Shown: positions 20,413-41,400, counted from the stretch's first letter. The stretch is DNA of 64,000 bases from an uncultured Chloroflexia bacterium (GCA_963794525.1 CAWCEC010000004.1:177637-241636), one strand, 5' to 3'. Notes: generated by a model from the letters alone, not told the origin. Numbers and translations are program-made.

Positions 20413-21132
20413 CTAGCCGGGTAGAAGGTCTCCGACCGAGTCGATGATCGTGTCGGCCGCTTGGAGATCCTCGTCCGTCCCGACGCCGCTTCGGACCCCG
20501 ATCACGCGCCCGGCACCCGCCGCGCGCGCCATGTCGAGGTCCGCCGGCGTGTCGCCGACCACCGCGACCCGCGAGGGTTCCGTCAGGAACGCGTGGCACA
20601 CCGCGAACACCGGGTCGGGCGCGGGCTTCACCTCGAACCCGTCGTCCCCGCAGACCATCGCCCCGACCAGCTGGCGGACCCCCAGTGAACGGAGCGCGGC
20701 CTCGGTCGCCGCACGATCGTCGGTCGTGACGACGGCGATCCGCCGCCCGTCGGCCCGCAGCCCCTCGAACACTGTCACGAGGTCCGCCAGCGGTACCGCG
20801 GACGCGGTCGGATCCGGGACGAACCAGGCTGTCTCGGTCGCGCGTCGCGCGGCGGCGATGCTCGGGCACCAGCGGCGCAGTACGCGGGCGACGGTCTCCT
20901 CGATACCCGCCATCGTCGCCGTCGCCAGCGCACCGCCGGGTGCGACCCGGCCACTGCTCGGGTCGAAGCCGATCGTCGCGAACACGTCGAGCGACACCGG
21001 TCGGCGGATCGTGGCGTCCAGGCGATCACCCAGCTCGCGCGCCCAGCCGCCCCACATCGCATGGAAGTCGATGAGCGTGCCGTCCTTGTCGAAGATGACG
21101 GCATCGATGCCCGCCAGGTCGACGGCCGTCAC
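20413..21132 (-). CDS. HAD-family phosphatase (phosphoglycolate-phosphatase-like)
   Basis: IFDKDGTL, VTTD, KPAPD, VGDTPAD; GTGA overlap with the upstream oxidoreductase stop. Confidence 0.9.
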   Translation of the reverse strand: MTAVDLAGIDAVIFDKDGTLIDFHAMWGGWARELGDRLDATIRRPVSLDVFATIGFDPSSGRVAPGGALATATMAGIEETVARVLRRWCPSIAAARRATETAWFVPDPTASAVPLADLVTVFEGLRADGRRIAVVTTDDRAATEAALRSLGVRQLVGAMVCGDDGFEVKPAPDPVFAVCHAFLTEPSRVAVVGDTPADLDMARAAGAGRVIGVRSGVGTDEDLQAADTIIDSVGDLLPG

Positions 21133-23597
21133 CCGCGCAGCCGCCGCATCTCCGGATCGAACAGCGGGTCCGTGGCGACCGTTGCCGGGACGGCCTCGCC
21201 GAAATAGCGGATCGTCACGGGCTGCCCGGGTCGGGCGACGTCCGACGGCAGCCACGCCAACGCGATGGGGGCGTCGACCTCGGGCGAGTAGCCGTAGCCG
21301 GCGCTGGTCACGTAGCCGGCGGGGCGGCCGTCGACGTGGACGGGCTCCTTGCCCATCATGACGGCGGCCTTGTCGGCGATGACCAGTGGGACGAGCCGCC
21401 GCTCGACAGACTCGGCGCTGCGACCGACGAGCGCGTCACGGCCGACGAACTCGCCCTTGTCCATGCGAACGGCGAACCCGAGACCGGCCTCGAACGGGTC
21501 ATGCTCACTGGTCATGTCGACGCCCGACAGGCGGTAGCCCTTCTCGAGTCGCAACGACCCGAACGCACTCCGCCCGGCGGCGATGATCCCGTGCTCCTGC
21601 CCGGCTGCCCACAGCGTGTCCCACAGCTTCAGGCCCATGTCAGCGGTCGTGTACAGCTCCCAGCCGAGCTCGCCGACGTACGACACGCGGAGCGCGGTGA
21701 CCGGCACGCTCCCCACCCACAGCTCGCGGGCCTGGAAATAACGGAACGCGTCGTTGGACACGTCCGCATCGGTGACGGATGCGAGGACGTCGCGTGCGCG
21801 CGGACCCCACAGCCCGATGCAGCAGGTCCCGCTCGTGATGTCGCGGACGCTGACGCTGCCGTCGCTCCGGGCGCGACGCTCCAACTCGTCGAGATCCAGC
21901 GGGCCGTTGGCGCCGACCTGGAAACGATCCGGGCCGAGGCGGGCGACGGTCAGGTCGCTCCGGATCCCGCCGCGAGCGTCGAGCAGGAGGCTGTACACCA
22001 CGGTCCCCAACGGACGGTCGACCCGGTTCGTCGTCAGGTGGTCGAGGAAAGCGGCGGCACCCGATCCCTCGACCGCGATCCGCTTGAGCGGCGTCACGTC
22101 GAACATCGCGACGCCATCGCGCGTCGCTCGCGCCTCGGCGCCGGCGATCGGATGCCAGTAGCGCGCGGCCCACGCGTTGCGGCGATGGATCTCGCCGCCG
22201 TAGCGGCCCAGCAGTCGCTCGTTGACGCCGAACCAGTGCGGCCGCTCCCAGCCCCCACCCTCGAGGAAGTACGCCCCGAGCTCCTGCTCGCGCTCGTAGA
22301 ACGGCGACGTCCGCAGTGGCCGCGGCTCCTCCATCGGCTGGAGGGGGTGGACGATGTCGTACACCTCGACGTAGTTCTGGATGCCCCGGTCGTGGACGAA
22401 CGACGGCGACAGCTGGTGCGCCTCGAACCTGTTGAGGTCGCAGTCATGGAGGTCGAAGGTCGAGCCGCCGTCGACCAGCCATTCGGCCATCGCCCGCCCG
22501 ACGCCAAGCGCATGGGTCACCCAGACCGCCTCGGCCAGCCAGAATCCGGCCACGTCGCGTGACTCACCCATCAGTGGGAAGCCGTCCGGCGTGAACGAGA
22601 AGATGCCGTTGATCGCATGATCGATGCGCGCGTCCGGCGCGCGCAGCGCCGGGACGAGCTCCTCGGCCCACGACCACGTCTCGGCGAACGTGTCGGGCGT
22701 GAAGTCCAGCACCGACGGCATCACCGGCGCGTCGCGCGGGTGGAGGAGATCGGAGGCGTCGACCGGCAGTGGCACGTGCCCGTAGCCGCCGACAGCCAGG
22801 CGGTCCGGGTATTCGCGGAAGTACATGTCGCGGTCCTGGACGCGGATGTTCGGGTGGATCGCCTCACGCTCCGGTGGGATCCCGAAGGCCACCACGTCGG
22901 GCAAAACCGTCGTCCAGCTGAGCTGATGGGCAAGCGGCTGGAGCGCCACGGTCATCCCGACCATCGCGCCGATGCGCGGGCCCCAGATGCCGGCGGCACA
23001 GACCACGATGTCAGCCGGGACCTCGCCGCGCTCCGTGAGGACGCCGCGCACCCGCCCGTCATCCGTCCGGATGCCGGTCACGGTGTGATCACCCAGGAAC
23101 CGGGCGCCACCCTCGATCGCGCGACGCGCCTGCGCCTCGGACACGCGTACCCCATCGGTCAGGCCGTCGGACGGCACGTGGTACGCACCGACGATCCGGT
23201 CGCGATCGACCAGCGGCCACAGTCGCACGGTCTCCTCGGGGTCGATCACCCGGCCGTCGAGACCCCACGACTCCGCGAAGTCGCGCCGGCGGTGGAGCTC
23301 GGCCAGCCGCTCCGGCGTGAGTGCAAGCTCCAGGCTGCCGACGGGGTTCCAACACCAGCGCCCGTCCAGGTCGAGGGAGGCCGCCTTCTCGACGCTGTAG
23401 CGGGCGAAGCCCGTCATCGTCTTCGACGCATTGGTCTGGAAGATGATGCCGGGCGCATGCGAGGTCGAGCCGCCTGTCTTGAAGAGGCCGCCCTGCTCGA
23501 CGACCGTGACGTCCGACCAGCCGCGCAGGACCAGCTCATCGGCCAGCGAGCAGCCGACGATGCCGGCTCCGATGATCACGACCCGTGGTGTTCGCAT
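21129..23597 (-). CDS. GcvT-domain FAD-dependent oxidoreductase (dimethylglycine/sarcosine dehydrogenase family), paralog 1
   Basis: IIGAGIVG, GGSTSHAPG, FTPDG, GWERP, VSYVGELGWE, SLRLEKGY. An alternative GTG start lies at 23672. Confidence 0.92.
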   Translation of the reverse strand: MRTPRVVIIGAGIVGCSLADELVLRGWSDVTVVEQGGLFKTGGSTSHAPGIIFQTNASKTMTGFARYSVEKAASLDLDGRWCWNPVGSLELALTPERLAELHRRRDFAESWGLDGRVIDPEETVRLWPLVDRDRIVGAYHVPSDGLTDGVRVSEAQARRAIEGGARFLGDHTVTGIRTDDGRVRGVLTERGEVPADIVVCAAGIWGPRIGAMVGMTVALQPLAHQLSWTTVLPDVVAFGIPPEREAIHPNIRVQDRDMYFREYPDRLAVGGYGHVPLPVDASDLLHPRDAPVMPSVLDFTPDTFAETWSWAEELVPALRAPDARIDHAINGIFSFTPDGFPLMGESRDVAGFWLAEAVWVTHALGVGRAMAEWLVDGGSTFDLHDCDLNRFEAHQLSPSFVHDRGIQNYVEVYDIVHPLQPMEEPRPLRTSPFYEREQELGAYFLEGGGWERPHWFGVNERLLGRYGGEIHRRNAWAARYWHPIAGAEARATRDGVAMFDVTPLKRIAVEGSGAAAFLDHLTTNRVDRPLGTVVYSLLLDARGGIRSDLTVARLGPDRFQVGANGPLDLDELERRARSDGSVSVRDITSGTCCIGLWGPRARDVLASVTDADVSNDAFRYFQARELWVGSVPVTALRVSYVGELGWELYTTADMGLKLWDTLWAAGQEHGIIAAGRSAFGSLRLEKGYRLSGVDMTSEHDPFEAGLGFAVRMDKGEFVGRDALVGRSAESVERRLVPLVIADKAAVMMGKEPVHVDGRPAGYVTSAGYGYSPEVDAPIALAWLPSDVARPGQPVTIRYFGEAVPATVATDPLFDPEMRRLRG

Positions 23598-23727: not shown

Positions 23728-24558
23728 ATGGCCAGCGAGCCCGGCGTCACCGGCGAAACGACGACCCTCGCGGATCCGCTGGAGGAATCGCTCCGGCTCG
23801 TCGAGGTCGCCGATTCGCGCGGATTGACCCTTCGACTGATGGGCGGTATGGCCATCCGCGCCCACGCGCCACGCTGGCCGGCGCGGACCCGACGCACCGA
23901 AGTTGACCTGGACTTCGCGACGACCTCGCGGGATCGCTCGGCCGTCTACAAGCTGCTCGAGTCGGAGGGCTACACACCCGATCGCCAGCAGAACGCGCTG
24001 TTCGGCCAGAAGCAGGCGTATTTCGTCGACGTGCCGCGCAAGCGACCGGTCGATGTGCTCGTCGACGCGCTCGAGATGTGCCACCGCGTCGAGTTCGGAC
24101 CGCGGCTGGACAAGTCGAAGCCGACCCTGCCGCTGGCCGAGTTGCTGCTGTCCAAACTCCAGGTCGTCAAGATCAACCGCAAGGACGTCCTCGACGCGCT
24201 GATCCTGCTGGCGGAGCACCCGCTCGCCCAGGACGATGGTGTCGACGCCCTGCACGGGCCGGGCGCGATCAACGTCCCGCGCATCCTCGATGTCACCTCG
24301 AACGACTGGGGCTGGTGGCGGACGGTCAGCGGGAACCTCGAGAAGCTCGACCAGTTCCTGACGACCGAGCTCAAGCCCGACGATCTCGACCTCGGGACCG
24401 GTGAGCCCGTGAAGTTCGATCCGGCGGCGCAGGTCGCCGCGCTGCGCGCAGCCATCGATGGCGCACCGAAGTCGACCCGCTGGCGGCTGCGAGCGCGCGT
24501 CGGTGAACGCGTCACGTGGTACGCGGAGCCCGAGGAGATGGAGCACCGAGCGCTATGA
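23728..24558 (+). CDS. Uncharacterised nucleotidyltransferase-fold protein
   Basis: LMGGMA...VDLDF (hG[GS]...DhD), a third acidic strand PVDVLVD, and LLLSKLQ...RKDVLD; AGGAGGAG RBS. Confidence 0.75.
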   Translation: MASEPGVTGETTTLADPLEESLRLVEVADSRGLTLRLMGGMAIRAHAPRWPARTRRTEVDLDFATTSRDRSAVYKLLESEGYTPDRQQNALFGQKQAYFVDVPRKRPVDVLVDALEMCHRVEFGPRLDKSKPTLPLAELLLSKLQVVKINRKDVLDALILLAEHPLAQDDGVDALHGPGAINVPRILDVTSNDWGWWRTVSGNLEKLDQFLTTELKPDDLDLGTGEPVKFDPAAQVAALRAAIDGAPKSTRWRLRARVGERVTWYAEPEEMEHRAL

Positions 24559-25493
24559 GGATCTTCTTCGCAACCGACGTCCACGGCTCCGAGGTGTGCT
24601 GGCGGAAGTTCCTGAACGCCGGCGCCTTCCACAAGGCCGACGTCCTGATCATGGGCGGCGACATGACCGGCAAGGCGATGGTCCCGATCGTCCATCGAAA
24701 CGGGGGCTGGGAGGTCACGCTCCAGGAACAGCTCCACCAGCTGGCGACCGAGGACGAGCTCCTGGCGATGGAGAAGCGGATCTCCGACCGCGGCTACTAC
24801 CCGGTCCGCCTCGAGCCTGACGAGCTGGAGGCGTGGCAAGCCGACCAGTCGCTGGTCGATGCCCGCTTCAAGGACGAGATGCTGCGCAACGTCGAGCGCT
24901 GGATGGCCCTCGCCGACGAGCGCCTCGAGGGGAAGGGCATCCGCTGCATCGTGTCGCCTGCCAATGACGACATGTTCGAGATCGACCCGATCATCGCCGC
25001 CGCTCGGCTCGTCGAGCTGGGCGAGGCCAACACGATCGCCCTGGACGGCATCTCGCTCGTCTCGACCGGCTGGGCCAACCCGACACCGTGGAAGACGTTC
25101 CGCGAGCTTCCGGAAGACGAGCTGCGGGCTCGGATCGATGGTCTTGTCGCCGAGGTCCCCGACCCTCGGCGCTCCATCTTCAATTTCCATGCTCCGCCCT
25201 ACGGCTCGAACCTCGATTCGGCGCCCAAGCTCGATGCCGACCTCAAATACGTCGCGGGCGGACAGGCGCTGGTCCCTGTCGGGTCGCACGCGGTCCGGGA
25301 CGCGATCAGCGCGTACGGGCCGATGCTGTCGCTCCACGGCCACATCCACGAGGGACGGGGCGCCGTGAAGATCGGCCGCACCCTCGCCGTCAACCCCGGC
25401 AGCACCTACGAGGATGGGGTGCTCCAGGCCGCGATCGTCGACCTCGACGTCAAGAAAGGCGAGGTGAAGCGCTATCTGCTGATCAACGGCTGA
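24555..25493 (+). CDS. Calcineurin-like metallophosphoesterase (Icc-related)
   Basis: ATDVHG, GGDMTG, PANDD, NFHAPP, LHGHIHE; ATGA overlap with the nucleotidyltransferase stop. Confidence 0.88.
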   Translation: MRIFFATDVHGSEVCWRKFLNAGAFHKADVLIMGGDMTGKAMVPIVHRNGGWEVTLQEQLHQLATEDELLAMEKRISDRGYYPVRLEPDELEAWQADQSLVDARFKDEMLRNVERWMALADERLEGKGIRCIVSPANDDMFEIDPIIAAARLVELGEANTIALDGISLVSTGWANPTPWKTFRELPEDELRARIDGLVAEVPDPRRSIFNFHAPPYGSNLDSAPKLDADLKYVAGGQALVPVGSHAVRDAISAYGPMLSLHGHIHEGRGAVKIGRTLAVNPGSTYEDGVLQAAIVDLDVKKGEVKRYLLING

Positions 25494-25537
25494 CAGGACC
25501 GGTGGGGGAGGGAATCAGGAGGGAACAGGAGGGACAC

Positions 25538-27331
25538 ATGGCAACTGGCACTGCGTCCCCGTCGCTCTTCCTCAGGAATGCGACGGGACTCGTCAAGGGC
25601 TGGTCCGCGTTCGACGCGTTCACCTACTCGTTCATGTCGGTCAACCTCGTCACGCTGGGCATGTTCTACAGCCTGGCCGTGTTCGCGTACGTGCCGACGG
25701 CATCGCCCGTGCTGTCGATCCTCATCGCCGCGATCGCAGTCACGTTCCTGGCGGTGGCATATGCGGCACTGATCGCCGTCATGCCGCGTGCCGGCGGCGA
25801 CTACGTGTGGCAGACGCGGGTGCTCGACGGGCTGCCCGGCATCATCACCGGCGCGATCACCGGTGGGGTCGCGTCCTACCTGGTCGCGCAGGCCGTCGGC
25901 CTAGACTCGACGATCGCGCTCGTCGCCGGGGTGATCGGCCTCGTCGCGGGCGGCTTCATCGGAAGGATGCGTGGCGGCATCGGGTTCGTGCTCGCCGCCA
26001 CCGGCTGGTGGTTCATCCTCGCGATGTGGGCGCCGATCTACGGCGCCATCCTCAAGCTCGAGTTCTTCCAGCCGCTGGCAGCGCTCCTGGGTTCGACTGC
26101 CGGCGTCGACTTCTTCGGCTCCGACACTGGCACGCTGGTCGTGTCGCTCATCGTCATCGGCCTGACGTCGTGGCTGGTCGCCCTCGGGATGGCGGGCTAC
26201 GCGCGGATCCAGCGCGTCTGCCTGTATCTCGGGCTGATCGGCTTCGCGATCATGGCGATCCTGATGCTGGTCTCATCGCAGGACCAGTTCCGGGCCGCGT
26301 TCGACACGGCGAACATGCGGATGTTCGGGGTAGCAGGTGCGTACGACAAGACCATCGCCGACGCCGCCACGAATGACGCCTTCACCGGTTCACTCGAACC
26401 GCTCGCGATGGGCACCGACCTGACTGCGACGCTGGGCGCCGCCGTCGTGATGCTGCCCTTCATGCTGTTCTGGATCCTGTACCCGAACTGGGGCTCGACG
26501 CTCTACGGCGAGGTCCGCGGCTCGGGCGATTTCCGCAAGGTCCTCAACGGGATGCTGGGCGGGATCTGGGTCACCGCGATCCTGGCGATCGTGTTCGTAT
26601 TGCTGGCAGCCAAGACGTTCGGCTGGCTGTTCTTCAACGCCACCAACGCGAACTTCATCAATTGGTTCTATGGCTACACCACGACCGATCCGACCGTCCC
26701 GATCTGGAGCTATCCACCGCTCCTCGCCTCGTACCTGATCGACGTCCCGATCTTCCAGATCGCGATGGTCGTGCTGTTCGCGGCGTGGTTCCTCGGCTGG
26801 TCCGGGACGTTGTTCCTGTCGTCGACGCGGATGATCTTCGCGGCGGCGTTCGACCGCATCCTTCCGGAGCGGGCAGCGCAGGTGTCCGAGGGCCGCGGCG
26901 TCCCCGTGACGGCCCTGCTGTTCATCATGATCCCGGCCATCGTCGTGAGCGTGATCTACTCGTTCTCGGCGGACTTCCGGGCGCTGACATTGGACGCCAC
27001 GCTCGTGATCGCCGTCACGTTCCTCGGGAGCACCGTCGCCGCCACGATCCTGCCGTGGTGGAAACCGCAGCTCTTCGACAACTCGCCGATCGCGCGGCTG
27101 AAGATCCCGATCACGGTGGCCAGCCTGATCATCTCGGTGATCCTGGCCTACACGATCTACTTGTGGCTGACCGATGCGCTCTATGGCATCGGTGTCGGCA
27201 ACGCCAACTCGATCATCTTCCTGGGCGTGCTCTACGGGCTCGCCGCGATCGTGTATGTCGCCGCGCGGGTGTACCGCCGGTCGCAGGGCGTCGACCTAGA
27301 CGCGATCCACGCGGAGATCCCCGCGGAGTAG
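25538..27331 (+). CDS. APC-superfamily amino acid permease
   Basis: LFLRNATGLVK, MPRAGGDY, R-MIFAAAFDRILP; about 14 hydrophobic segments. Confidence 0.88.
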   Translation: MATGTASPSLFLRNATGLVKGWSAFDAFTYSFMSVNLVTLGMFYSLAVFAYVPTASPVLSILIAAIAVTFLAVAYAALIAVMPRAGGDYVWQTRVLDGLPGIITGAITGGVASYLVAQAVGLDSTIALVAGVIGLVAGGFIGRMRGGIGFVLAATGWWFILAMWAPIYGAILKLEFFQPLAALLGSTAGVDFFGSDTGTLVVSLIVIGLTSWLVALGMAGYARIQRVCLYLGLIGFAIMAILMLVSSQDQFRAAFDTANMRMFGVAGAYDKTIADAATNDAFTGSLEPLAMGTDLTATLGAAVVMLPFMLFWILYPNWGSTLYGEVRGSGDFRKVLNGMLGGIWVTAILAIVFVLLAAKTFGWLFFNATNANFINWFYGYTTTDPTVPIWSYPPLLASYLIDVPIFQIAMVVLFAAWFLGWSGTLFLSSTRMIFAAAFDRILPERAAQVSEGRGVPVTALLFIMIPAIVVSVIYSFSADFRALTLDATLVIAVTFLGSTVAATILPWWKPQLFDNSPIARLKIPITVASLIISVILAYTIYLWLTDALYGIGVGNANSIIFLGVLYGLAAIVYVAARVYRRSQGVDLDAIHAEIPAE

Positions 27332-27352
27332 CTCGAAAACCAAGCCGAGGGT

Positions 27353-27504
27353 GTCACCCACAGTGACATGTCAGCGTGGGTGACGCTTTCGGCACATCCG
27401 TGCGCGATCGATCGCCCAGACGACAGGTTTCTGCGTCCTGGGCGATCGGTCGTGCGGGTTCATGGCGATCGTGTCACTGGGACTGACATGTCAGCCTGAG
27501 TGAC
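27353..27504. repeat. Composite palindromic element: two 32-bp palindromes 120 bp apart flanking a long hairpin
   Basis: gtcacccacagTGACATGTCAgcgtgggtgac (27353-27384) and gtcactgggacTGACATGTCAgcctgagtgac (27473-27504); central stem 27402-27455. Confidence 0.8.
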
Positions 27505-27583: not shown

Positions 27584-30109
27584 ATGGGCGCGCTCCCGGC
27601 GCGAGCGGACGTCGTCGTCATCGGCGCGGGCATCGTCGGCAACAGCATGGCCTACCACCTGGCCGAGCAGGGCTGGCGGGACATCGTGCTAGTCGACAAG
27701 GGACCCCTGCCCAGTCCGGGCGGATCCACCGGCCATGCCTCGAACTTCATCTTCCTGACCGACCACTCGAAAGAGATGACGGCGTTCACCGTCGACAGCG
27801 CCCGCCAGTACCGCGAGCTGGATGTGTACGACGAGACCGGCGGCATCGAGGTCGCTCGGACACCTGAACGGATGGAGGAGCTCACGCGACGCCAGGCGTC
27901 GTCGACCTCGTGGGGGATCGAGGGGTCCCGGTTGCTGACCCCTGCCGAGGTCAAGGAGATGGTCCCGTTCATCGACGAGTCGGTGATCCTCGGTGGGTGG
28001 TACACGCCGGGCGTCGGCATCGTCGACTCGCTCCAGGCCGGGACCCTGATGCGCGACAAGGCCCAGAAGATGGGCGCGTTGACGGTCGCGGCGGGCGTCG
28101 AGGTCACCGGCATCGACGTGGTCGACGGGCAGGTCCGCGGCGTGCGCACGGACCAGGGTGACATCGCCGCCGATACGGTCGTCATCGCGTGCGGCGTGTG
28201 GAGCCCGCGGATCGCCCGGATGGCCGGGGCGTCGATCCCGTTGACGCCGGCGGTCCACCAGATGATCGACATCGGCCCGGTGCCCCAGTTCGAGCACACG
28301 ACCAAGGAGGTCGGCTTCCCGATCGTCCGCGACATGGACACCAACATGTACGAGCGCCAGCACGGCACCGGCTTCGAGGTCGGCTCGTACGCCCACCGGC
28401 CGATCCTGATGGACGCCGACGACATCCCGTCGATCGAGGCCTCGGCCCTGTCGCCGACGATGTTGCCGTTCACCCAGGAGGACTTCGACCCGCAGCTCGA
28501 GGATGCGCTCGAGCTGTTCCCCGAGATCGTCGGCGACGAATCCGTTGGCGTGAAGCTGGCGATCAACGGCCTGCTCGCATTGACGCCCGACGGCAACCCG
28601 ATCATCGGCGAGACCCCCGAGGTGAAGGGCCTCTGGTCCGCGGCCGCGATCTGGATCAAGGAAGCGCCAGGGATCGCCAAGGCGATCGCCGAGTGGATGA
28701 CCACAGGCGAACCGGAGATCGACCCGCACGGATCGGACATCGCCCGCTTCTATGACCATCACAAGACCGCGCAACACATCGCGGCGCGGGCCAGCGAGGG
28801 GTTCAACAAGACCTACGGCATCGTCCACCCGATGGAGCAGTGGGCGTCGAACCGGCCCATCCGGCTGTCGCCGGCCTACGACCGACATGTCGAGCTGGGA
28901 GCCGAGTTCTTCGAGGCGGCGGGCTGGGAACGGCCGTACTGGTACGGCACGAACGAGGGGCTTCTCGGCGAGTACGGCGATCGGGTGATGCCGCGTGAGG
29001 CCGAATGGGAATTGCGCTGGTGGTCGCCGATCATCAACGCGGAACACCTCGCGATGCGCGATCGGGCCGGTCTCGTCGACCTGTCGGCGTTCGCGATCTT
29101 CGACATCAGCGGGCCCGGGGCGCTCGCCGCGCTGGAACGGCTCTGCGTCAATCGCGTCGACGTGGCGCCGGGCCGGACGGTCTACACGCCGCTGCTCAAC
29201 TCGGCGGGCGGCATCCTGGCCGACCTGACCGTGATGCGCCTGGCCCATGACCGCTTCCGGGTCGTGACGGGCGGCGGCATGGGGATGCGCGACCGCAAGA
29301 TCTTCCAGGACGCGATGCCAGCCGACGGTACCGCGCACCTGCACGACGTGACCAACGCGTTCACGACGTTCGGGCTGTGGGGCCCGCGGGCACGCGACAT
29401 CCTCGGCGTGGCCGCCGACGGCGGCGCGGACATCAGCCACAAGGGCTTCCCGTTCCTGACGTCCAAGACCGTCGAGATCGACGGCGTCCGGACACTCGCG
29501 TCACGCATCAGCTACGTCGGCGAGCTGGGTTGGGAGATCTACGTCCCGATCGAGCAGGGGTTACGTGTCTGGGACGCGCTGTGGCGGGCCGGCCAACCGC
29601 ACGGGCTCGTGCCGGTCGGGATCGGCACGTACGCCGTGACCTCGCGGCTGGAGAAGGGCTACCGGGCGCATGGCGCCGAGCTCGAGCTCGATTTCGATCT
29701 CGTCGAGGCCGGCATGGCGCGACCGACGGTGAAGGACGACGACTTCGTCGGGCGCGAGGCCTATCTGCGGAAGCGCGACGAATCGCCCGTGGCGATCCTG
29801 TGCACGTTGACCGTCGAGGACCACACTTCGAAGAAGGGCGTCAAGCGCTTCATGCTCGGCCGCGAGCCGATCCTGGCGGAGGACGGCAGCCCGCTGGTCG
29901 ATGCGAAGGGCCGCCGCTCGTACGTGACGAGCGCGGGATCCGGCCCGTCGGTCGGGAAACATCTGCTGATGTCGTATCTGCCACCGGAGCAGGCGGTCGA
30001 GGGCACCAAGCTCCTCGTGGAGTACTTCGGCGAGCGCTATCCCGTGACCGTGGCCGTCGCAGGCAGCACGCCGCTGTTCGACGCCGAGAACGACCGGATC
30101 CGGAGCTGA
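27584..30109 (+). CDS. GcvT-domain FAD-dependent oxidoreductase (dimethylglycine/sarcosine dehydrogenase family), paralog 2
   Basis: VIGAGIVG, GGSTGHA, LTPDG, GWERP, ISYVGELGWE, SRLEKGYR; GGAGGAGG RBS. Confidence 0.92.
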   Translation: MGALPARADVVVIGAGIVGNSMAYHLAEQGWRDIVLVDKGPLPSPGGSTGHASNFIFLTDHSKEMTAFTVDSARQYRELDVYDETGGIEVARTPERMEELTRRQASSTSWGIEGSRLLTPAEVKEMVPFIDESVILGGWYTPGVGIVDSLQAGTLMRDKAQKMGALTVAAGVEVTGIDVVDGQVRGVRTDQGDIAADTVVIACGVWSPRIARMAGASIPLTPAVHQMIDIGPVPQFEHTTKEVGFPIVRDMDTNMYERQHGTGFEVGSYAHRPILMDADDIPSIEASALSPTMLPFTQEDFDPQLEDALELFPEIVGDESVGVKLAINGLLALTPDGNPIIGETPEVKGLWSAAAIWIKEAPGIAKAIAEWMTTGEPEIDPHGSDIARFYDHHKTAQHIAARASEGFNKTYGIVHPMEQWASNRPIRLSPAYDRHVELGAEFFEAAGWERPYWYGTNEGLLGEYGDRVMPREAEWELRWWSPIINAEHLAMRDRAGLVDLSAFAIFDISGPGALAALERLCVNRVDVAPGRTVYTPLLNSAGGILADLTVMRLAHDRFRVVTGGGMGMRDRKIFQDAMPADGTAHLHDVTNAFTTFGLWGPRARDILGVAADGGADISHKGFPFLTSKTVEIDGVRTLASRISYVGELGWEIYVPIEQGLRVWDALWRAGQPHGLVPVGIGTYAVTSRLEKGYRAHGAELELDFDLVEAGMARPTVKDDDFVGREAYLRKRDESPVAILCTLTVEDHTSKKGVKRFMLGREPILAEDGSPLVDAKGRRSYVTSAGSGPSVGKHLLMSYLPPEQAVEGTKLLVEYFGERYPVTVAVAGSTPLFDAENDRIRS

Positions 30110-32293: not shown

Positions 32294-32304
32294 CAGGAGA
32301 AGCT

Positions 32305-33708: not shown

Positions 33709-33745
33709 GGTTCCATCATACGGTACGGTTCCACGATGTGGAACC
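33709..33745. promoter_or_regulatory. Putative IclR operator GGTTCCAC-GAT-GTGGAACC with a degenerate tandem copy 18 bp upstream
   Basis: Perfect 8-3-8 palindrome at 33727-33745, and GGTTCCATCATACGGTAC at 33709, in the divergent gap between iclR and the corrinoid operon. Confidence 0.7.
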
Positions 33746-33771: not shown

Positions 33772-34485
<714 letters not shown>

Positions 34486-35140
34486 ACATCGGGCCGATGG
34501 CGTCGCCTCGCCACGGGTCCTCGTGGTCGGCTGTGGCGCCCTCGCGCGGGAGCTGGTCGCGCTGACCAGAGACCTGCCCAACGTCGACATCACGTGCCTG
34601 CCGGCCACGCTCCATAACCGACCGGGTGGCATCCCGGCCGCGGTCCGAGATCGCATCCGCCGCCGCCGCGCCGGCTATGACCGCGTGTTCGTCGCCTATG
34701 CCGACTGTGGCACCGGCGGCCTGCTCGACCCGGTCATCGCCGAGGAGGGCGTCGAGCGTCTCGCGGGCGCGCATTGCTACGAGTTCTACGCTACGAGCCC
34801 GGAGTTCGCCCGGCTGGTCGAGGACGAGCCGGCCACCTTCTTCCTGACCGACTTCCTCGCCCGCAACTTCGATCGGCTGGTGATCAAGGGTCTGGGTCTC
34901 GACCGCCACCCGGAGCTGCGCGACGCGTATTTCGGCAACTACAGGCGCCTCGTCTACCTCGCCCAGACCGACGATCCGACGCTCGCTACGGCAGCCCGAC
35001 GCGCCGCACGCCGGCTCGGGCTCCGCTTCGAGCAGCGCCACACCGGCTACGGCCAGCTCGCGACGACGATCGGCGCGGTCGCCGCGGGCCGACCCGCACC
35101 GACCGTCACGTCCGTCATCGACCTGGGAGGACGCTGAGCC

Positions 35141-35488
35141 GTGGGCACCATGACCGTCATCTGGTGGCGCGACATCCCGGCCCAGGTGACCGGCCGCGAG
35201 GGTCGGCGGCAGAGCAAGATCGTGCTCCATCCGCGCTTCCAGGTCGCGATCGACAAGGCCGCCAGCCGCGCCGGCAAGCGGGCCTACAACGCCTACATCG
35301 AAGAGTGGCGCCGGACCCAGAAGCGCTGCGGTGACGACATCGACCAGGAGGTGGCGGCCGAGGCCGAGCGCCTCGAGGCCGACTACGACAAGCATCGACT
35401 GGCGATGCTCATCCAGTCCGGCGGGGTCGATGGCGGGGAGCCGTTGCCGCCTGCGCACGACGAGACCCAGGGGAAGCCGGACGCATGA
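35141..35488 (+). CDS. Small 'virulence factor' (PF13769-like) protein of corrinoid clusters
   Basis: IWWRDIPAQV...RFQVAIDKAA...YIEEWRR; family recognised from memory. Confidence 0.7.
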   Translation: MGTMTVIWWRDIPAQVTGREGRRQSKIVLHPRFQVAIDKAASRAGKRAYNAYIEEWRRTQKRCGDDIDQEVAAEAERLEADYDKHRLAMLIQSGGVDGGEPLPPAHDETQGKPDA

Positions 35489-36462
35489 CGCGCACGGTCG
35501 TCAGCTCCGCTACGCGCGAGGTCGTCCTCGGCGACGACCAGCCGTTCGTGATCATCGGTGAGCGCATCAACCCGACCGGTCGCAAGATCCTCATGGAGGA
35601 GATGAAGGCCGGCGACTTCTCGCGCGTCGAGCGCGACACGATCGCCCAGGTCGAGGCGGGTGCCCACATGCTGGACGTCAATGCCGGCATCCCGCTGGCC
35701 GACGAGCCGGCGATCCTGGCCCAGACGATCAAGCTCGTCCAATCGCTGACGGACCTTCCGCTGTCGATCGACTCGTCCATCGTCGAGGCGCTGGAAGCCG
35801 GGCTTGCCGTCTACCAGGGCAAACCGCTGCTCAACAGCGTCACGGGTGAAGAGGAGCGGCTGGAGCGGGTGCTGCCGCTGGTCAAGAAGTACGGCTGCGC
35901 GGTCGTCGCGATCAGCAACGACGAGACGGGCATCAGCATGGACCCGGACGTCCGCTTCGCCGTCGCCAAGCGCATCGTCGAGCGGGCCGCCGACCACGGC
36001 ATCCCGCGCGAGGACATCGTGGTCGATCCGCTGCTGATGCCCATCGGGGCGCTTGCCGGCGCTGGCCGCCAGGTGTTCCACATCCTCGGGCGGTTGCGCG
36101 ACGAGCTGAAGGTCAACTCGACGTGCGGCGCCTCGAACGTCAGCTTCGGGTTGCCGAACCGCGAGGGCATCAACGGCGCGTTCCTGAGCATGGCCATCGC
36201 GTCGGGGCTCACGTCGGCGATCACCAACCCGGTCGCCGAGGGCGTGCGCCACGCCGTCATGGCCAGCGACGTGCTGATGGGCAACGACCAGGACGCCGCC
36301 CGCTGGATCCGCCGGTTCCGCGTCGCGCCGCCCGCCGGCGAGGCCGGGGGCCGCCGCGTCAACCGCCGTCGCGGTGGCGCCCCGAATGGCGCCGGCCAGG
36401 CGCTCTCGGCGGACGTGCCCGGCGTCGACGTCCCGGGGCTCGACGTCCCGGCCTCGCGCTGA
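35485..36462 (+). CDS. Methyltetrahydrofolate:corrinoid methyltransferase (pterin-binding, DHPS fold)
   Basis: IIGERINPTGRK, LDVN, SIDSS, LLNS, VVDP, GASNVSFGLP; ATGA overlap. Confidence 0.9.
   Translation: MTRTVVSSATREVVLGDDQPFVIIGERINPTGRKILMEEMKAGDFSRVERDTIAQVEAGAHMLDVNAGIPLADEPAILAQTIKLVQSLTDLPLSIDSSIVEALEAGLAVYQGKPLLNSVTGEEERLERVLPLVKKYGCAVVAISNDETGISMDPDVRFAVAKRIVERAADHGIPREDIVVDPLLMPIGALAGAGRQVFHILGRLRDELKVNSTCGASNVSFGLPNREGINGAFLSMAIASGLTSAITNPVAEGVRHAVMASDVLMGNDQDAARWIRRFRVAPPAGEAGGRRVNRRRGGAPNGAGQALSADVPGVDVPGLDVPASR
36412..36456 (+). repeat. 15-bp tandem repeat x3 encoding DVPG(V/L)
   Basis: gacgtgcccggcgtc / gacgtcccggggctc / gacgtcccggcctcg at the 3' end of the MeTr gene. Confidence 0.75.
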
Positions 36463-36472: not shown

Positions 36473-38545
36473 ATGGCCCCGACACCTGCCACGACGGACC
36501 CGCAGATCATCTTCACGCCGTCGGGTCGGCGCGGCCGGGTCCCGGTCGGCACCACGATCCTCGATGCCGCGCGCTCGCTCGGCGTCGACATCGACGCCGT
36601 CTGCGGTAGCCGTGGGATCTGCGGTCGGTGCACGGTGACCCCCGCATTTGGGACGTTCGCGAAGCACGGCATCACATCGGCGCCGGAGCACATCGCGGAG
36701 CCGGGCCAGCTCGAGACGGCGTACCGCGAGGAACAGGGCCTCCCCGACGACCGGCGGTTGTCCTGCACGGCCACGTTGCTCGGCGACGCCGTCATCGACG
36801 TCCCGCCCGAGAGCCAGGTCCACCGCCAGGTCGTTCGCAAGGACCTCGCCGCACGGGCCTTCGAGATGGATCCGGTCGTGCGGCTCTACACGGTCGATGT
36901 CACGGCACCCGACCTGGCCACGCCGACCGGCGACCTCGGCCGGCTGTTCGCGGCGCTCGAGGCGGAGCAAGGGTTGACGGATCTGCACGCCGACCTGTCG
37001 GTCATCCGCGTCCTCCAGTCGACGCTGGAAGCGGGCGCGTACCGCGTCACCGTGGCCGTCCATGGCGGAGGCGATGTCATCGCGGTCTGGCCCGGCTTCC
37101 ACGACCGCGCGTTCGGCGTCGCCATCGATGTCGGGTCGACGACGATCGCCGGGCACCTGGTCGACCTCGTGAGCGGCGACGTCCTCGCGAGTGCTGGCGT
37201 GATGAACCCGCAGATCCGGTTCGGCGAGGACCTGATGAGCCGCGTGTCGTACGTGATGATGCATGAGGGCGGCGATGTCGAGCTGACGACGGCGGTCCGA
37301 AAGGCGCTCGACGGGTTACTCGCCGCGCTCGCCAACAAGACCGATATCAAGCGGCTCGAGATCCTCGAGCTCGCGATCGTCGGGAACCCGATCATGCACC
37401 ACCTGCTCCTTGGCATCGATCCGACGCCGCTCGGTTCGGCGCCATTCGCGCTGGCGACCGACACCGCCGTTTCGACGACCGCCGCCGAGCTCGGCGTGTA
37501 CGCCCATCCGGGGGCGCGGGTCTACGTGTTGCCGTGCATCGCCGGTCACGTCGGTGCGGATACGGCCGGGGTGATCCTGGCCGAGGAGCCGCACAAGGCC
37601 GAAGTGATGACGCTGGTCGTCGACGTCGGCACGAACGCCGAGATCGTCCTCGGCAACCGCGACCGGCTGCTGGCCGCTAGCAGCCCGACCGGCCCGGCGT
37701 TCGAGGGTGCCCAGATCAGCTCGGGGCAGCGTGCCGCGCCCGGCGCGATCGAGCGCGTGCGGATCGACCGCGCGACGCTGGAGCCGCGGTTCCGGGTGAT
37801 CGGTGTCGATGCCTGGTCCGATACGCCGGACTTTGTGGAAGCCCTGGCTGCCGCCGGCACCGGCGTGACCGGCATCTGCGGCTCGGGGATCATCGAGGTG
37901 ATCGCGGAGCTGTTCCTCGCCGGCGTCATCAGCGCGGACGGCGTGATCGACGGCGGTCTCGCCGACCGGACGGCGCGGGTCATCCCGGACGGCCGCACGT
38001 ACAGCTACGTCCTGCACGAACCCGACGAGGGCGGCCCGCGGATCGTCATCACCCAGAACGACGTCCGCGCGATCCAGCTCGCGAAGGCCGCGCTGTACGC
38101 GGGTGCGCGGCTCCTGATGGACCAGCTCGCGATCAACACCGTCGACGAGGTCCGCCTGGCTGGCGCGTTCGGCAGCCAGATCGACCCGTTGCACGCGATG
38201 GTCCTGGGGCTGGTGCCGGATTGCGACCTCGAGCGGGTGCGCGCTGCCGGCAACGCCGCGGGCACCGGCGCGTTGATCGCGCTGCTGTCCGGGGCCGCCC
38301 GGCGCGAGATCGAAGGTGTCGTCCGCCGGGTCGAGAAGATCGAGACGGCGGTCGAGCCCCGCTTCCAGGAGCACTTCGTCGAGGCGATGGCGATCCCGCA
38401 CCGCACCGCCCCGAGCCCGAACCTCGAGCAGGTCGTCGATCTGCCGCCCCGCCCGGCCACCGCCGGCCGGGCGACCGACGGACGAACGGGGACCCGCCGA
38501 CGCCGACGGGCCGTGGTCCGCAGCGGACCCGGAGCCGAGCGATGA
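36473..38545 (+). CDS. RACo-type reductive activator of corrinoid enzymes (2Fe-2S + ASKHA)
   Basis: CGSRGICGRC...RLSC, AIDVGSTTI, NPQIRFGEDLMSR, GNPIMHH, DVGTNAE, GPAFEGAQI, GICGSG, AGAFG, GNAAG. Confidence 0.92.
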   Translation: MAPTPATTDPQIIFTPSGRRGRVPVGTTILDAARSLGVDIDAVCGSRGICGRCTVTPAFGTFAKHGITSAPEHIAEPGQLETAYREEQGLPDDRRLSCTATLLGDAVIDVPPESQVHRQVVRKDLAARAFEMDPVVRLYTVDVTAPDLATPTGDLGRLFAALEAEQGLTDLHADLSVIRVLQSTLEAGAYRVTVAVHGGGDVIAVWPGFHDRAFGVAIDVGSTTIAGHLVDLVSGDVLASAGVMNPQIRFGEDLMSRVSYVMMHEGGDVELTTAVRKALDGLLAALANKTDIKRLEILELAIVGNPIMHHLLLGIDPTPLGSAPFALATDTAVSTTAAELGVYAHPGARVYVLPCIAGHVGADTAGVILAEEPHKAEVMTLVVDVGTNAEIVLGNRDRLLAASSPTGPAFEGAQISSGQRAAPGAIERVRIDRATLEPRFRVIGVDAWSDTPDFVEALAAAGTGVTGICGSGIIEVIAELFLAGVISADGVIDGGLADRTARVIPDGRTYSYVLHEPDEGGPRIVITQNDVRAIQLAKAALYAGARLLMDQLAINTVDEVRLAGAFGSQIDPLHAMVLGLVPDCDLERVRAAGNAAGTGALIALLSGAARREIEGVVRRVEKIETAVEPRFQEHFVEAMAIPHRTAPSPNLEQVVDLPPRPATAGRATDGRTGTRRRRRAVVRSGPGAER

Positions 38546-40083
38546 CCGAGCGAGCCCCTGGCCGCCGCAGCGGCGGTAGCGAGGCGCGGCGTGCCGCGCG
38601 CCTCCATGCCCATCACGAGCGGACGCCGTTCCTGACCCGCACCCTCGCGCCATTCGAGGTCCTCGACGAGGAGGGCCTCTCGCTCATCGAGCAGAACGCC
38701 GACACGATCCTCGAAGAGGTCGGGATCATCTTCCGTGGTGACCCCGAGGCGCTCACGTTGCTGCGCGACGGCGGTGCGGACGTCGACGGCGAACTCGTGC
38801 GGTTCCCGCGGGGCATGTGCCGACGGATCGTGCAGGCGACCGCGCCCCGGCAGTTCACCCAGTACGCCCGGAACGAGGCCAACAACGTCGAGATCGGCGG
38901 GATGCACACGGTGTTCGCGCCGAATTACGGCTCGCCGTTCGTCCGGGATCTCGATCGCGGCCGGCGCTACGGCACGATCGAGGACTTCCGCAACCTCGTG
39001 AAGCTCACCTACCTGTCGCCGCACCTCCACCACAGTGGCGGGACCGTCTGCGAGCCGGTCGATATCCCGGTCAACAAGCGCCACCTCGACATGGTCTACG
39101 CGCACATGCGCTACTCGGACAAACCGTTCATGGGCTCGGTGACGGCGCCGGAGCGCGCTCGCGACACGGTCGAGATGGCGCGGATCCTGTTCGGGGCCGA
39201 CTACCTCGAGGACCACCCGGTCATCCTGTCGCTGATCAACGCGAACTCGCCTCTGGTCTGGGACGCCACGATGCTCGGATCGGCGAGAGCCTACGCCGAG
39301 GCGAACCAGGCGACGCTCCTGACGCCATTCATCCTGGCCGGCGCGATGGCGCCGGTCACCGCTGCGGGCGTCGCCGCGCAAACGCTGGCCGAGGCGCTCG
39401 CCGGCATGGCGTTCGTCCAACTCGTGCGACCCGGTGCCCCGGTCGTGCTCGGCAGCTTCGCGAGCTCGATGTCGATGCAGTCCGGCGCGCCGACGTTCGG
39501 CACACCGGAGCCCGCCCTGGTCCTGTACGTCATGGGGTCGCTCGCGCGCAGGCTGGGTGTCCCGTTCCGATCCGGTGGCTCGCTGTGCGCTTCGAAGATC
39601 CCCGACGCGCAGGCCGCCTACGAGAGCGCCGCGACGCTCCAGCCGACCGTCCTGGGCGGCGTCAACTTCGTCCTCCACGCCGCGGGCTGGCTCGAGGGCG
39701 GGCTGAGCGTCGGCTACGAGAAGTTCATCCTCGACGCCGACCAGTGCGGGATGATGGCCGTCTTCGTGAAGGGCGTCGACCTCTCGGAGAACGGCCAGGC
39801 GCTGGATGCGATCCGCGGCAACGGGCCCGGTCAGCACTTCCTCGGCACGGCCCACACCCTGGCCAACTTCGAGACCGCGTTCTACCGCTCCGAGGTCGCC
39901 GACAACAATTCCTTCGAGCAGTGGAGCGAGGACGGCGGGTTGGACGCGGCCCAGCGGGCCAATGCGATCTGGAAGCGGATGCTCGCGGAGTACGAGGAAC
40001 CGCCGCTCGACCAGGCGATCGACGAGGCACTGCTGGAGTTCATGATCCGCCGCAAGGCGTCGATGCCCGACTCCGAGGTCTGA
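38542..40083 (+). CDS. MttB-family (trimethylamine/glycine betaine) corrinoid methyltransferase, non-pyrrolysine
   Basis: NSPLVWD, TPFILAGAMAP, SGAPTFGTPE, GGSLCASKIPDAQA (Leu at the position that is Pyl in archaeal MttB), HAAGWLEGG, HFLG. Confidence 0.92.
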   Translation: MTERAPGRRSGGSEARRAARLHAHHERTPFLTRTLAPFEVLDEEGLSLIEQNADTILEEVGIIFRGDPEALTLLRDGGADVDGELVRFPRGMCRRIVQATAPRQFTQYARNEANNVEIGGMHTVFAPNYGSPFVRDLDRGRRYGTIEDFRNLVKLTYLSPHLHHSGGTVCEPVDIPVNKRHLDMVYAHMRYSDKPFMGSVTAPERARDTVEMARILFGADYLEDHPVILSLINANSPLVWDATMLGSARAYAEANQATLLTPFILAGAMAPVTAAGVAAQTLAEALAGMAFVQLVRPGAPVVLGSFASSMSMQSGAPTFGTPEPALVLYVMGSLARRLGVPFRSGGSLCASKIPDAQAAYESAATLQPTVLGGVNFVLHAAGWLEGGLSVGYEKFILDADQCGMMAVFVKGVDLSENGQALDAIRGNGPGQHFLGTAHTLANFETAFYRSEVADNNSFEQWSEDGGLDAAQRANAIWKRMLAEYEEPPLDQAIDEALLEFMIRRKASMPDSEV

Positions 40084-40086
40084 GCG

Positions 40087-41400
40087 GTGCTCTTCCGCCG
40101 CCACGCCCGGCTGACGCCAGCCTCGCGCACCGCGCTGGCCGATCTTCTGGGTTCGCCGACGTTCGAGCTCATCCCGCTCAAGAACGCGATGGACCAGGCC
40201 GCCTATCTCCCGGCCGGGGCGACTGTGTCGGTCACTGCCTCGCCTACCAAGGGGCTCGAGGCGACGGTGGACCTCGCGGCGCGGTTGCGCCTTGCCGGAT
40301 TCACCGTCGTCCCCCACCTGTCGGCGCGCATGGTCCGCGATCGAGCGCACCTCACCGCGCTGGTGGCGGCCCTCGATAACGCCGGAATCGATCGGGCATT
40401 CATCGTCGGCGGCGATGAGAAGGAGCCGGGCGCGTATGTCGACGGCCTGGCGCTGCTGCGCGAGCTGGCCGAGATCGGCCATCCGTTCCGGCACGTCGGC
40501 ATTCCTGCTTACCCTCAGGGCCACGCGTTCATCGCGGACGGTCCGCTGCTTGCGGCGTTGCACGCCAAGGCCGAGTTCGCCCAGTACATGACTACACAGC
40601 TCTGTTTCGACCCCTCGGCCATCTCGTCCTGGATCGCGGCACGTCGGGCGGAGGGCCTGACCCTGCCGGTCCATATCGGGGTCCCGGGTGTGGCGGAGCC
40701 ACAGAAGCTCCTCGCTCTCGCGGCGCGGATCGGGGTGGCCGATACCCATCGGTTCCTCGCCAAGAACGTCCGATTCGTCGCGCGGCTCGTGCGGTCAGGT
40801 GGGTTCTACCGGCCTGACGCCCTTCTGGAGGGGATCGCCCCGACCATCGCCGATGCCGATGCGAAGGTCAGCGGTTTCCACCTCTATCTGTTCAACGCAG
40901 TGGAAGTGACCGAGCGCTGGCGAGTCGCCAAGCTCGAGACGCTGGCACGCGGATCGACGAGCGACGCCACGTCGCGGGGGTCGCTTCTCGACGCCCTCGC
41001 GGGCTTCCCCGATCGGCTCGCGGCCGCCGCCAGGGCGGCGACCGCCGACGCTGTCCCACCCGGCGAATGGACGCCGGAGCAGGTCGTCCGGCATCTGGTT
41101 GCGGTCGAGCTCGATGTCCATCAGGGTCGACTCCGCGACCTCGAGACCGACGCCGAACCGCAGTGGACGTGGGCCGAACCCGGACCGTGGCCGGGCGAAC
41201 CGGAGTTCGACCTCGAGGGGGTGGTCGCCAGGTTCGGCGAGGAGCGGGCGGCCACCGTCGGGGCGCTCCGGGCGCTCGACGAGGACGGCTGGGCGCGAGC
41301 CGGTCGGCACGCCACGTTCGGCCGGCTGGACGTGGCCGGGCTCGTCCGGACTGCAGTCGACCATGACGAGGAGCACCTCCGTGGTCTGGGTCGCGACTAG
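40087..41400 (+). CDS. MTHFR-like flavoprotein read through into a DinB/YfiT-like domain
   Basis: N-part VVPHLSAR, GGD, AYPQGH, TQLCFD, HLYLFN; C-part WTPEQVVRHL...HDEEH. Possibly two genes joined by one extra C at 40955. Confidence 0.8.
   Translation: MLFRRHARLTPASRTALADLLGSPTFELIPLKNAMDQAAYLPAGATVSVTASPTKGLEATVDLAARLRLAGFTVVPHLSARMVRDRAHLTALVAALDNAGIDRAFIVGGDEKEPGAYVDGLALLRELAEIGHPFRHVGIPAYPQGHAFIADGPLLAALHAKAEFAQYMTTQLCFDPSAISSWIAARRAEGLTLPVHIGVPGVAEPQKLLALAARIGVADTHRFLAKNVRFVARLVRSGGFYRPDALLEGIAPTIADADAKVSGFHLYLFNAVEVTERWRVAKLETLARGSTSDATSRGSLLDALAGFPDRLAAAARAATADAVPPGEWTPEQVVRHLVAVELDVHQGRLRDLETDAEPQWTWAEPGPWPGEPEFDLEGVVARFGEERAATVGALRALDEDGWARAGRHATFGRLDVAGLVRTAVDHDEEHLRGLGRD

Follow-up and report, generated by a model that had tools for sequence, protein, structure and literature searches.

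What might an aerobic soil bacterium of the phylum Chloroflexota demethylate with a corrinoid-dependent MttB homologue that is encoded next to two flavoenzymes of the dimethylglycine/sarcosine type? The question is raised by a 64,000-nt stretch of DNA (the window) from an uncultured Chloroflexia bacterium (GCA_963794525.1, CAWCEC010000004.1:177637-241636; G000:C4:177637-241636 in our own numbering), in which the genes concerned lie within 20 kb. Judging by sequence and gene context, the region is probably an aerobic, cobalamin-dependent catabolic route for glycine betaine, laid out in three adjacent transcription units, in a soil member of the Limnocylindrales. An initial annotation had proposed that betaine is converted to dimethylglycine, sarcosine and finally glycine with capture of the methyl groups on folate; this succession of predicted steps is supported by residues of the putative betaine pocket, an orthologue of dimethylglycine oxidase (DMGO), a second flavoenzyme gene joined to etfBA, the presence of folD and fhs, and the gene neighborhoods of orthologues. 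The parts which that annotation had listed (MttB, a corrinoid protein, MeTr, RACo, an MTHFR-like enzyme, a pair of GcvT-type enzymes, EtfAB and a permease) were all recovered in Pfam, NCBIfam and PDB searches, and its inventory was correct in the genes it named, but it had overlooked those for DUF1638, PF13769, IclR and DinB proteins.

The host genome and the corrinoid operon

The window belongs to a metagenome-assembled genome (MAG) of 3.17 Mb in six contigs (70% G+C, 80% complete, 1% contaminated), derived from soil and assigned to Candidatus Limnocylindrales (Chloroflexota). The nearest homologues of its MttB are 84-93% identical and stem from metagenomes of soil and freshwater; where named, they belong to a "Candidatus Limnocylindrales bacterium" or a "Chloroflexi bacterium". 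Because haem-copper oxidase subunit I (COX1) is encoded in the genome, we regard the host as aerobic, at least facultatively. Many spurious open reading frames (ORFs) arise from the high G+C content, and genes were therefore picked by G+C content at third codon positions (GC3) and then checked with Pfam. For comparison we used three genomes of the same genus (G170, G149 and G128) and a survey set of 80 loci from species-representative genomes, whose MttB is 68-88% identical to that of the window and which come from Limnocylindrales, Gaiellales, Thermoleophilia, Acidimicrobiia, other Actinomycetota, Alpha-, Beta- and Gammaproteobacteria, and Acidobacteriota-labelled contigs. The genes on which the argument turns are the following.

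21129-23597, minus strand: flavoenzyme DH1, 822 aa from an ATG at 23597 (Pfam DAO, FAO_M, GCV_T and GCV_T_C)
27584-30109, plus strand: flavoenzyme DH2, 841 aa (Pfam DAO, FAO_M, GCV_T and GCV_T_C)
30120-30884, plus strand: etfB (Pfam ETF)
30881-31882, plus strand: etfA (Pfam ETF_alpha), with a GTGA overlap with etfB
32921-33673, minus strand: IclR-family regulator (Pfam HTH_IclR and IclR_C), divergent from mtgC
33710-33744: candidate IclR operator, two tandem 17-bp palindromes GTTCCAYNATRYGGAAC
33772-34485, plus strand: mtgC, corrinoid (cobalamin-binding) protein (Pfam B12-binding_2 and B12-binding)
34454-35137, plus strand: DUF1638 protein (Pfam PF07796), candidate starts at 34454, 34466 or 34523
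35141-35488, plus strand: small PF13769 ("Virulence_fact") protein (Pfam, 70.6 bits)
35485-36462, plus strand: MeTr (MtgD-like), putative methyl-corrinoid:tetrahydrofolate (THF) methyltransferase (Pfam Pterin_bind)
36473-38545, plus strand: RACo, RamA-like activase (Pfam Fer2, RACo_linker, Raco_middle and RACo_C_ter)
38542-40083, plus strand: MttB without pyrrolysine, 513 aa (PF06253, 769 bits)
40087-40956, plus strand: MTHFR-like (MetF2-like) gene (Pfam MTHFR, only 24 bits)
40953-41400, plus strand: DinB_2 domain (Pfam DinB_2), fused in frame to the MTHFR-like ORF in this assembly

The core operon thus runs from mtgC through DUF1638, PF13769, MeTr, RACo, MttB and the MTHFR-like gene to DinB, with the IclR gene at its flank, and its junctions are either ATGA overlaps (PF13769/MeTr, and the RACo stop with MttB) or gaps of 3-10 nt, an arrangement of translational coupling. 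The start of mtgC at 33772 agrees with the N-termini of its relatives, and the top NCBIfam models for its product are two glycine-betaine MtgC models, both under their cut-offs. MeTr scores 348 bits with PRK07535, over the cut-off, and RACo 368 bits with an AcsV-type model, under the cut-off.

This operon recurs in about 45-54 of the 80 loci, in at least three phyla, and is conserved in Limnocylindrales, Gaiellales, Acidimicrobiia and several proteobacterial families; tblastn with the window proteins recovered the block of IclR followed by MtgC, DUF1638, PF13769, MeTr, RACo, MttB and MTHFR in most of the loci that were sufficiently long. DUF1638 is syntenic in 32 of the surveyed loci and the IclR gene in 23, and PF13769 sits between DUF1638 and MeTr in most loci holding this corrinoid hub, across phyla. 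Within the genus, G128 keeps the entire 20-kb order, including the gene without assigned family, the phosphoesterase and the permease described below; G149 has the hub, DH2-etfBA and DH1; and G170, the closest genome, has the hub with an MttB that is 98% identical. Because the core operon recurs across phyla and the 20-kb layout recurs in a genome of the same genus, we do not consider the co-location to be due to chance. Among 201 sampled genomes of the class, an MttB orthologue (at least 77% identity) was found in half (30 of 60) of those from the same family, including 12 of 12 of the genus, and was essentially absent from the class's other families.

The identity pattern along the operon looks like a mosaic: with G170, identity is 93-98% for MeTr, RACo and MttB but only 59% for DUF1638, which is 90% identical to its counterparts in G149 and G128. 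Such a pattern points to recombination inside the operon between congeneric species.

The MttB pocket and its likely substrate

The MttB homologue covers profile positions 1-500 of 500 of PF06253 and is a member of that family. Its ORF has no internal stop, and the site which pyrrolysine occupies in M. barkeri MttB (X in 7XCL, K in the variant 7XCM) aligns with Leu348, so that the leucine which the initial annotation had placed there is confirmed. Its score with TIGR02369, the model for pyrrolysine-containing trimethylamine methyltransferases, is 257 bits where the cut-off is 525; given this score and the missing pyrrolysine, we rejected a true trimethylamine methyltransferase. The closest solved protein is PDB 4YYC (E 9e-217; residues 5-511, ~70% identity over 507 residues), and the next matches are D. 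hafniense MtgB (2QNE/9YCE, E 1e-123) and true MttB (E 4e-30). The first of these, a "putative trimethylamine methyltransferase" which we take to be a structural-genomics entry from Sinorhizobium meliloti, shares the loop HAAGWLEGG and the Tyr, Arg and His discussed below, but because its function is unpublished it adds no evidence on the substrate.

Mutagenesis and a betaine-bound structure have defined the contacts of MtgB, which holds glycine betaine through cation-pi interactions with Y97 and F356 and through R312 and H348 at the carboxylate (Picking et al., JBC 2026, PMC13080624). We compared the pocket residue by residue through PDB alignments, correcting the chain numbering of 9YCE by two residues. 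MtgB Y97, R312 and H348 correspond to Tyr129, Arg343 and His379 of the window protein, so that three of the four pocket residues are conserved, as they are in 64-65 of 67 orthologues. MtgB F356 corresponds to Gly387; Gly386-Gly387 replaces Tyr355-Phe356 of MtgB, and the second cation-pi aromatic residue is therefore not conserved. In MtgB, the change F356L raises the Km several hundred-fold (PMC13080624). A check of the betaine-binding residues, which the initial annotation had advised, accordingly comes out in its favor at Tyr, Arg and His and not at the position of Phe356. Trp383, which occupies the position of MtgB Ile352, is invariant in the orthologue group and might stand in for Phe356; in the AlphaFold2 model (mean pLDDT 78) confidence drops below 50 in loops 347-357 and 380-388, which are the pocket loops.

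The glycine in place of Phe356 is also the first argument for supposing that the substrate of MttB is another quaternary amine (proline betaine, carnitine, gamma-butyrobetaine, choline or phosphocholine, for instance) and that the flavoenzymes demethylate its products. Moreover, R312 and in part H348 recur in MtcB, MtpB, MthB and MtyB, a set that includes the enzymes for carnitine, proline betaine, gamma-butyrobetaine and phosphocholine (PMC13080624), so that these two residues do not discriminate between substrates; the transporter of the region, beside a metallophosphoesterase, is a generic APC permease and not of the BCCT or OpuA type; and the genome holds several MttB paralogues. However, the aromatic pair is not shared by these other characterized enzymes (PMC13080624), and Tyr97, one member of that betaine-specific pair, is invariant here. 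An orthologue-level dimethylglycine oxidase is part of the cluster, the neighbors across phyla include sarcosine oxidase, BetA/BetB-like enzymes and GbdR-like regulators, and other MttB paralogues have contexts of their own, one with a racemase/epimerase-type enolase-superfamily enzyme and demethylases and one with a carnitine-type BKACE enzyme. We therefore consider another amine unlikely as the substrate and a glycine betaine:corrinoid methyltransferase resembling MtgB to be the probable identity of this MttB.

The neighbors just mentioned emerged when the ORFs of the 80 loci were clustered and Pfam was run on cluster representatives. The recurrent families were SoxB-like DAO proteins (13 loci), SoxG (10), MFS transporters (10), ABC transporters (10), formate-THF ligase (FTHFS; 8), GMC oxidoreductases (BetA-like; 7), L-serine dehydratase (5), AraC regulators with a DJ-1/PfpI domain of the GbdR/SouR/CdhR type (5), FolD (4) and BetB-like aldehyde dehydrogenase (4). 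Judged by family assignment, this is the set of genes that glycine betaine induces in R. pomeroyi (PMC12478193).

Five MttB paralogues, including the copy in the window, are encoded in the MAG. Three of the other four lack the Tyr and the Arg or His at the betaine-contact positions, and the fourth, 69% identical to the window MttB, keeps Tyr, Arg, His and Trp. A frameshift splits the gene for this fourth protein (G000:C3:183281-189389, locus L098), whose counterparts in relatives are intact; nearby are genes for an Old-Yellow-Enzyme-type flavoprotein and for an enzyme of the BKACE family, which cleaves dehydrocarnitine on the route to betaine. Another frame-broken paralogue, one of those without the Tyr and Arg contacts (G000:C4:281644-292353, locus L097), is accompanied by an MR_MLE enolase-superfamily enzyme, an 853-aa DMGDH-like protein, a SoxA-like protein of Fer2_4 and GCV_T domains and a DAO fragment, and this module may act on substrates of the proline- or hydroxyproline-betaine type. 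The MAG has a sole copy of mtgC and one MtgC/MeTr/RACo set for five MttB genes, and this single hub probably also serves the four other paralogues.

The two flavoenzymes

Both DH1 and DH2 have the four-domain architecture of the DMGO/DMGDH/SARDH family together with its aligned histidine, and both belong to it. DH1 matches Arthrobacter DMGO (1PJ5) over its full length with 947 bits, and rat DMGDH with 364 bits; it is ~65% identical to DMGO in the first 100 residues, which places it at the level of an orthologue. DH2, 39% identical to DH1, scores 567 bits with DMGO and 317 bits with DMGDH. The motifs GGSTSHAP in DH1 and GGSTGHAS in DH2 keep the histidine aligned with DMGO His48, presumably the residue that carries FAD covalently. 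The earlier description of two GcvT-type dehydrogenases is thus right as to family, but the closest relative of DH1 is an oxidase, and DH1 may be an oxidase that uses O2 itself.

The gene etfB starts 10 nt after DH2. A second etfBA pair (33% identical), presumably the housekeeping one, lies on contig C3. Because etfBA directly follows DH2 and a second pair exists elsewhere, DH2 is the likely ETF-linked dehydrogenase. The genome has some six DMGDH-like paralogues, however, and the assignment of DH1 to dimethylglycine and DH2 to sarcosine is for that reason a guess.

The MTHFR-like enzyme and the methionine operon

The MTHFR-like protein has a sole PDB match, S6MTHFR of Sphingobium lignivorans SYK-6 (7XG9/7XLF, 116 bits). 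Its Glu27, Asp110 and the Gln of an MTTQ motif align with catalytic Glu21, Asp107 and Gln175 of S6MTHFR; of the residues that exclude NADH in the latter, Leu48 is Ser here, Pro49 is kept and Cys219 is unreadable in the alignment. S6MTHFR oxidises methyl-THF (CH3-THF) in vitro with a kcat of 29 s-1, hardly reacts with NADH and is the partner of THF-dependent demethylases (Yu et al., Commun Biol 2025, PMC11868366). An oxidative role, which the initial annotation had assigned to the MTHFR-like enzyme, is therefore favored, since its only solved relative oxidises methyl-THF (PMC11868366) and a separate operon appears to serve the reductive direction.

That second operon begins 1.2 kb downstream of the corrinoid operon. 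A SAM riboswitch (RF00162, 67 bits, 42600-42706) precedes a complete five-module metH with its reactivation domain, and behind metH lies a fusion of a YitJ-like homocysteine S-methyltransferase with a canonical MTHFR (46229-48526). On contig C2, outside the window, folD and fhs adjoin each other. The separate canonical MTHFR, the metH/SAM riboswitch arrangement and the folD-fhs pair would suit a division of labor between a catabolic, oxidative branch and an anabolic, reductive one. The metH operon also bears on the idea that the main task of MtgC, MeTr, RACo and DUF1638 is anabolic rather than catabolic, in a split cobalamin-dependent methionine synthase of the kind found in Phaeobacter inhibens. 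The double use of MtgC and MtgD in such a synthase, with MtgE, is typical of bacteria without MetH, and some lineages have both (PMC12478193). Here, however, the complete MetH and the YitJ-like fusion stand next door under a SAM riboswitch, and the operon itself holds MttB and an oxidative-type MTHFR but no homocysteine-binding module, which makes a mainly anabolic role for the hub very improbable; because a classical MetH is encoded alongside, MtgC and MtgD are not needed here for that purpose.

The MTHFR-like gene named in the initial annotation is real, but its ORF runs on in frame to 41400 and so takes in DinB_2. At 40953-40957 the sequence is ATCGA, against ATGA, a stop/start overlap, in G170 and G149; all of the 12 related loci checked, and the three genomes of the same genus, have DinB_2 as an ORF of its own in a different frame, and in relatives it is the ATGA-coupled last gene of the operon. 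We therefore rejected the MTHFR-DinB_2 fusion as a real architecture, since it arises from a 1-nt insertion at ~40955 relative to every relative examined. Two MttB paralogues of the MAG are likewise frame-broken, with intact orthologues in relatives; together with the ATGA of relatives, this makes an assembly indel the simplest reading.

Regulation and the remaining genes of the region

Control of the corrinoid operon probably lies with the divergent IclR protein, which would act through two palindromes in tandem, GTTCCAYNATRYGGAAC, located 28-62 bp upstream of the mtgC start and conserved upstream of mtgC in loci from Limnocylindrales and Acidimicrobiia. Between the permease gene and DH2 (27344-27504) there are two further palindromes ~120 bp apart with a long hairpin between them, their centers being GTGACATGTCAGC and CTGACATGTCAGC; the motif is unique to that spot in the window, and the element might combine a terminator with an operator for DH2-etfBA. 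An operator of the GTTCCAYNATRYGGAAC type was found nowhere else in the window, and a search for an operator shared by the mtgC, DH1 and DH2 promoters found none.

One could accordingly envision the three units as mere neighbors, with a corrinoid hub that serves several MttBs and with DH1 and DH2-etfBA regulated independently and acting on other N-methyl compounds. The lack of a shared operator is as this would predict, a distinct palindrome pair occurring only upstream of DH2, and so are the one MtgC/MeTr/RACo set for five MttBs, the many DMGDH-like genes and the closest genome, G170, in which no DH2 was found within the 10 kb fetched beyond IclR. Yet DH2-etfBA adjoins the operon in many loci of Chloroflexota and Actinomycetota and on one Acidobacteriota-labelled contig, DH1-like genes do so in several Actinomycetes loci, and the product of the first step is the substrate of a DMGO-type enzyme, so that we hold an accidental neighborhood to be quite improbable and keep to a single catabolic route.

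The remaining genes of the region lie outside and between the units already listed.

20413-21132, minus strand: HAD hydrolase, not conserved in relatives
23728-24558, plus strand: 276-aa protein without assigned family, opening the three-gene unit that separates the two flavoenzymes
24555-25493, plus strand: calcineurin-like metallophosphoesterase (Pfam Metallophos, E 4.5e-6)
25538-27331, plus strand: APC-superfamily permease, 597 aa (Pfam AA_permease_2, 33.9 bits)
31949-32628, plus strand: two small ORFs 3' of etfA, conserved in the genus

The start of the 276-aa protein was chosen by the ribosome-binding site GGAGGAGG, and Pfam and NCBIfam gave no match above threshold for it. The unit of this protein, phosphoesterase and permease (23728-27331) is kept at the same place in G128, and of its genes only those for the phosphoesterase and the permease recur in loci L017 and L022; the phosphoesterase orthologues in these three (77-82%) adjoin the permease. 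One idea is that the unit might handle a phosphorylated precursor such as phosphocholine. The Atlas clusters near the permease are generic APC permeases only. Of the two small ORFs, one encodes a 114-aa YtxH-like protein with an N-terminal hydrophobic segment and the other a 107-aa protein without family; both are conserved at 67-81% in the genomes of the genus and are absent from the other 80 loci.

The proposed route and what weighs against it

In the route that we favor, MttB would transfer a methyl group of glycine betaine to Co(I) of MtgC, as homology and context indicate, and MeTr would pass it from MtgC to THF. RACo would re-reduce oxidised Co(II) corrinoid with ATP, probably assisted by DUF1638 and perhaps by PF13769. 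The S6MTHFR-type enzyme would then oxidise CH3-THF to methylene-THF (CH2-THF), which could enter serine or proceed through FolD and Fhs to formate. The remaining methyl groups would leave as CH2-THF on the GcvT-like folate domains of DH1 and DH2; dimethylglycine is the most likely substrate of DH1, the DMGO orthologue, with O2 as a possible acceptor, and sarcosine that of DH2, with transfer of electrons to its dedicated ETF. Methionine synthesis would be handled separately by the adjacent metH/YitJ-like operon.

Several observations weigh against this scheme. Within the pocket it is Gly387, in place of Phe356, that departs from MtgB; among the flavoenzymes, the possible use of O2 by DH1 and the number of DMGDH-like paralogues; and in the layout, the missing DH2 in G170 and the lack of a common operator that would link the flavoenzymes to mtgC. 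The APC permease is no more than a candidate uptake system. Searches of the MAG returned no match for ETF-QO (PF05187), for a BCCT betaine transporter (PF02028) or for the cobalamin-synthesis marker CbiC (PF02570), in a genome that is 80% complete, so that absence is not proven. If these absences are real, B12 would be scavenged, betaine imported by another carrier and ETF re-oxidised otherwise.

A broader variant can also be drawn, in which the orthologue group of MttB and 4YYC builds a different quaternary-amine pocket, PF13769 and the metalloprotein DinB_2 are hitherto unrecognised accessory factors for O2 tolerance, and the hub serves all five MttBs. The accessory factors would in that case protect or re-reduce the cofactor, or take electrons from MTHFR; translational coupling of DinB_2 to an oxidative-type MTHFR is found in Limnocylindrales. 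We rate this variant as rather unlikely; were it true, the abundant soil Limnocylindrales would be broad quaternary-amine demethylators.

Relation to known systems

The initial annotation had implied that a corrinoid step combined with flavin dehydrogenases was new. This does not hold, since the pathway was already described from aerobic Proteobacteria in 2025 (PMC12478193), and the cluster adds no new mechanism. Genetics and proteomics showed that aerobic R. pomeroyi DSS-3 demethylates glycine betaine through MtgB, MtgC and MtgD, with RamA, DUF1638 and MetF2 co-induced and the dimethylglycine and sarcosine steps following; the genes are grouped into operons in further Alpha-, Gamma- and Deltaproteobacteria, and Chloroflexota are unmentioned (Mausz et al., PNAS 2025, PMC12478193). 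In P. inhibens, a strain deleted for both mtgB1 and gbcAB no longer grows on glycine betaine (bioRxiv 10.64898/2025.12.19.695462), and a RamA-like protein and DUF1638 are genetically linked to B12 reactivation (Price et al. 2018, PMC5764234). Annotations of mttB/mtgB in Limnocylindria MAGs have been filed under anaerobic methylotrophy (Rasmussen et al. 2024).

The window shares with the R. pomeroyi/P. inhibens system a non-pyrrolysine MttB, a corrinoid protein, a pterin-binding methyltransferase, RamA/RACo, DUF1638 and a second MTHFR, as well as downstream dimethylglycine/sarcosine demethylation, folate-linked C1 oxidation and an aerobic host. It differs in that the host belongs to Chloroflexota, that one IclR-flanked operon holds all parts with both later demethylases alongside, and that PF13769 and DinB_2 are extra conserved members. 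With D. hafniense MtgB/MtgC/MtgA (2QNE, 9YCE) it has in common the TIM barrel of the MttB superfamily, Leu at the pyrrolysine position, equivalents of Tyr97, Arg312 and His348, and the predicted passage of the methyl group through a cognate corrinoid protein to THF; unlike that system, it has Gly for Phe356 and Trp at the position of Ile352, an aerobic host, and RACo, DUF1638, PF13769 and an oxidative MTHFR within the operon. S6MTHFR and the MTHFR-like enzyme agree in the catalytic Glu, Asp and Gln and in their pairing with a THF-dependent, CH3-THF-producing demethylase, but they match with ~116 bits only, the partner is a corrinoid system here and LigM/DesA there, and DinB_2 follows here. The flavoenzymes resemble Arthrobacter globiformis DMGO (1PJ5) and mammalian DMGDH/SARDH in the four-domain architecture, the His motif, the folate-binding GcvT module that would capture the C1 unit, and the etfBA genes beside one of them; a difference is that no ETF-QO was found in the MAG.

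The locus offers several leads, namely the altered aromatic pocket of MttB (as in 4YYC), the candidate IclR operator, the PF13769 and DinB_2 companions, and one hub for five MttBs. A demand for cobalamin is implied, because the search for CbiC in the 80%-complete MAG gave no match. Soils are rich in glycine betaine and related quaternary amines, and one family of Limnocylindrales, common but uncultured soil Chloroflexota, is indicated as B12-dependent betaine demethylators. A pathway described in 2025 from marine Proteobacteria would thereby be extended to another phylum and another habitat, in a compact, all-in-one arrangement.

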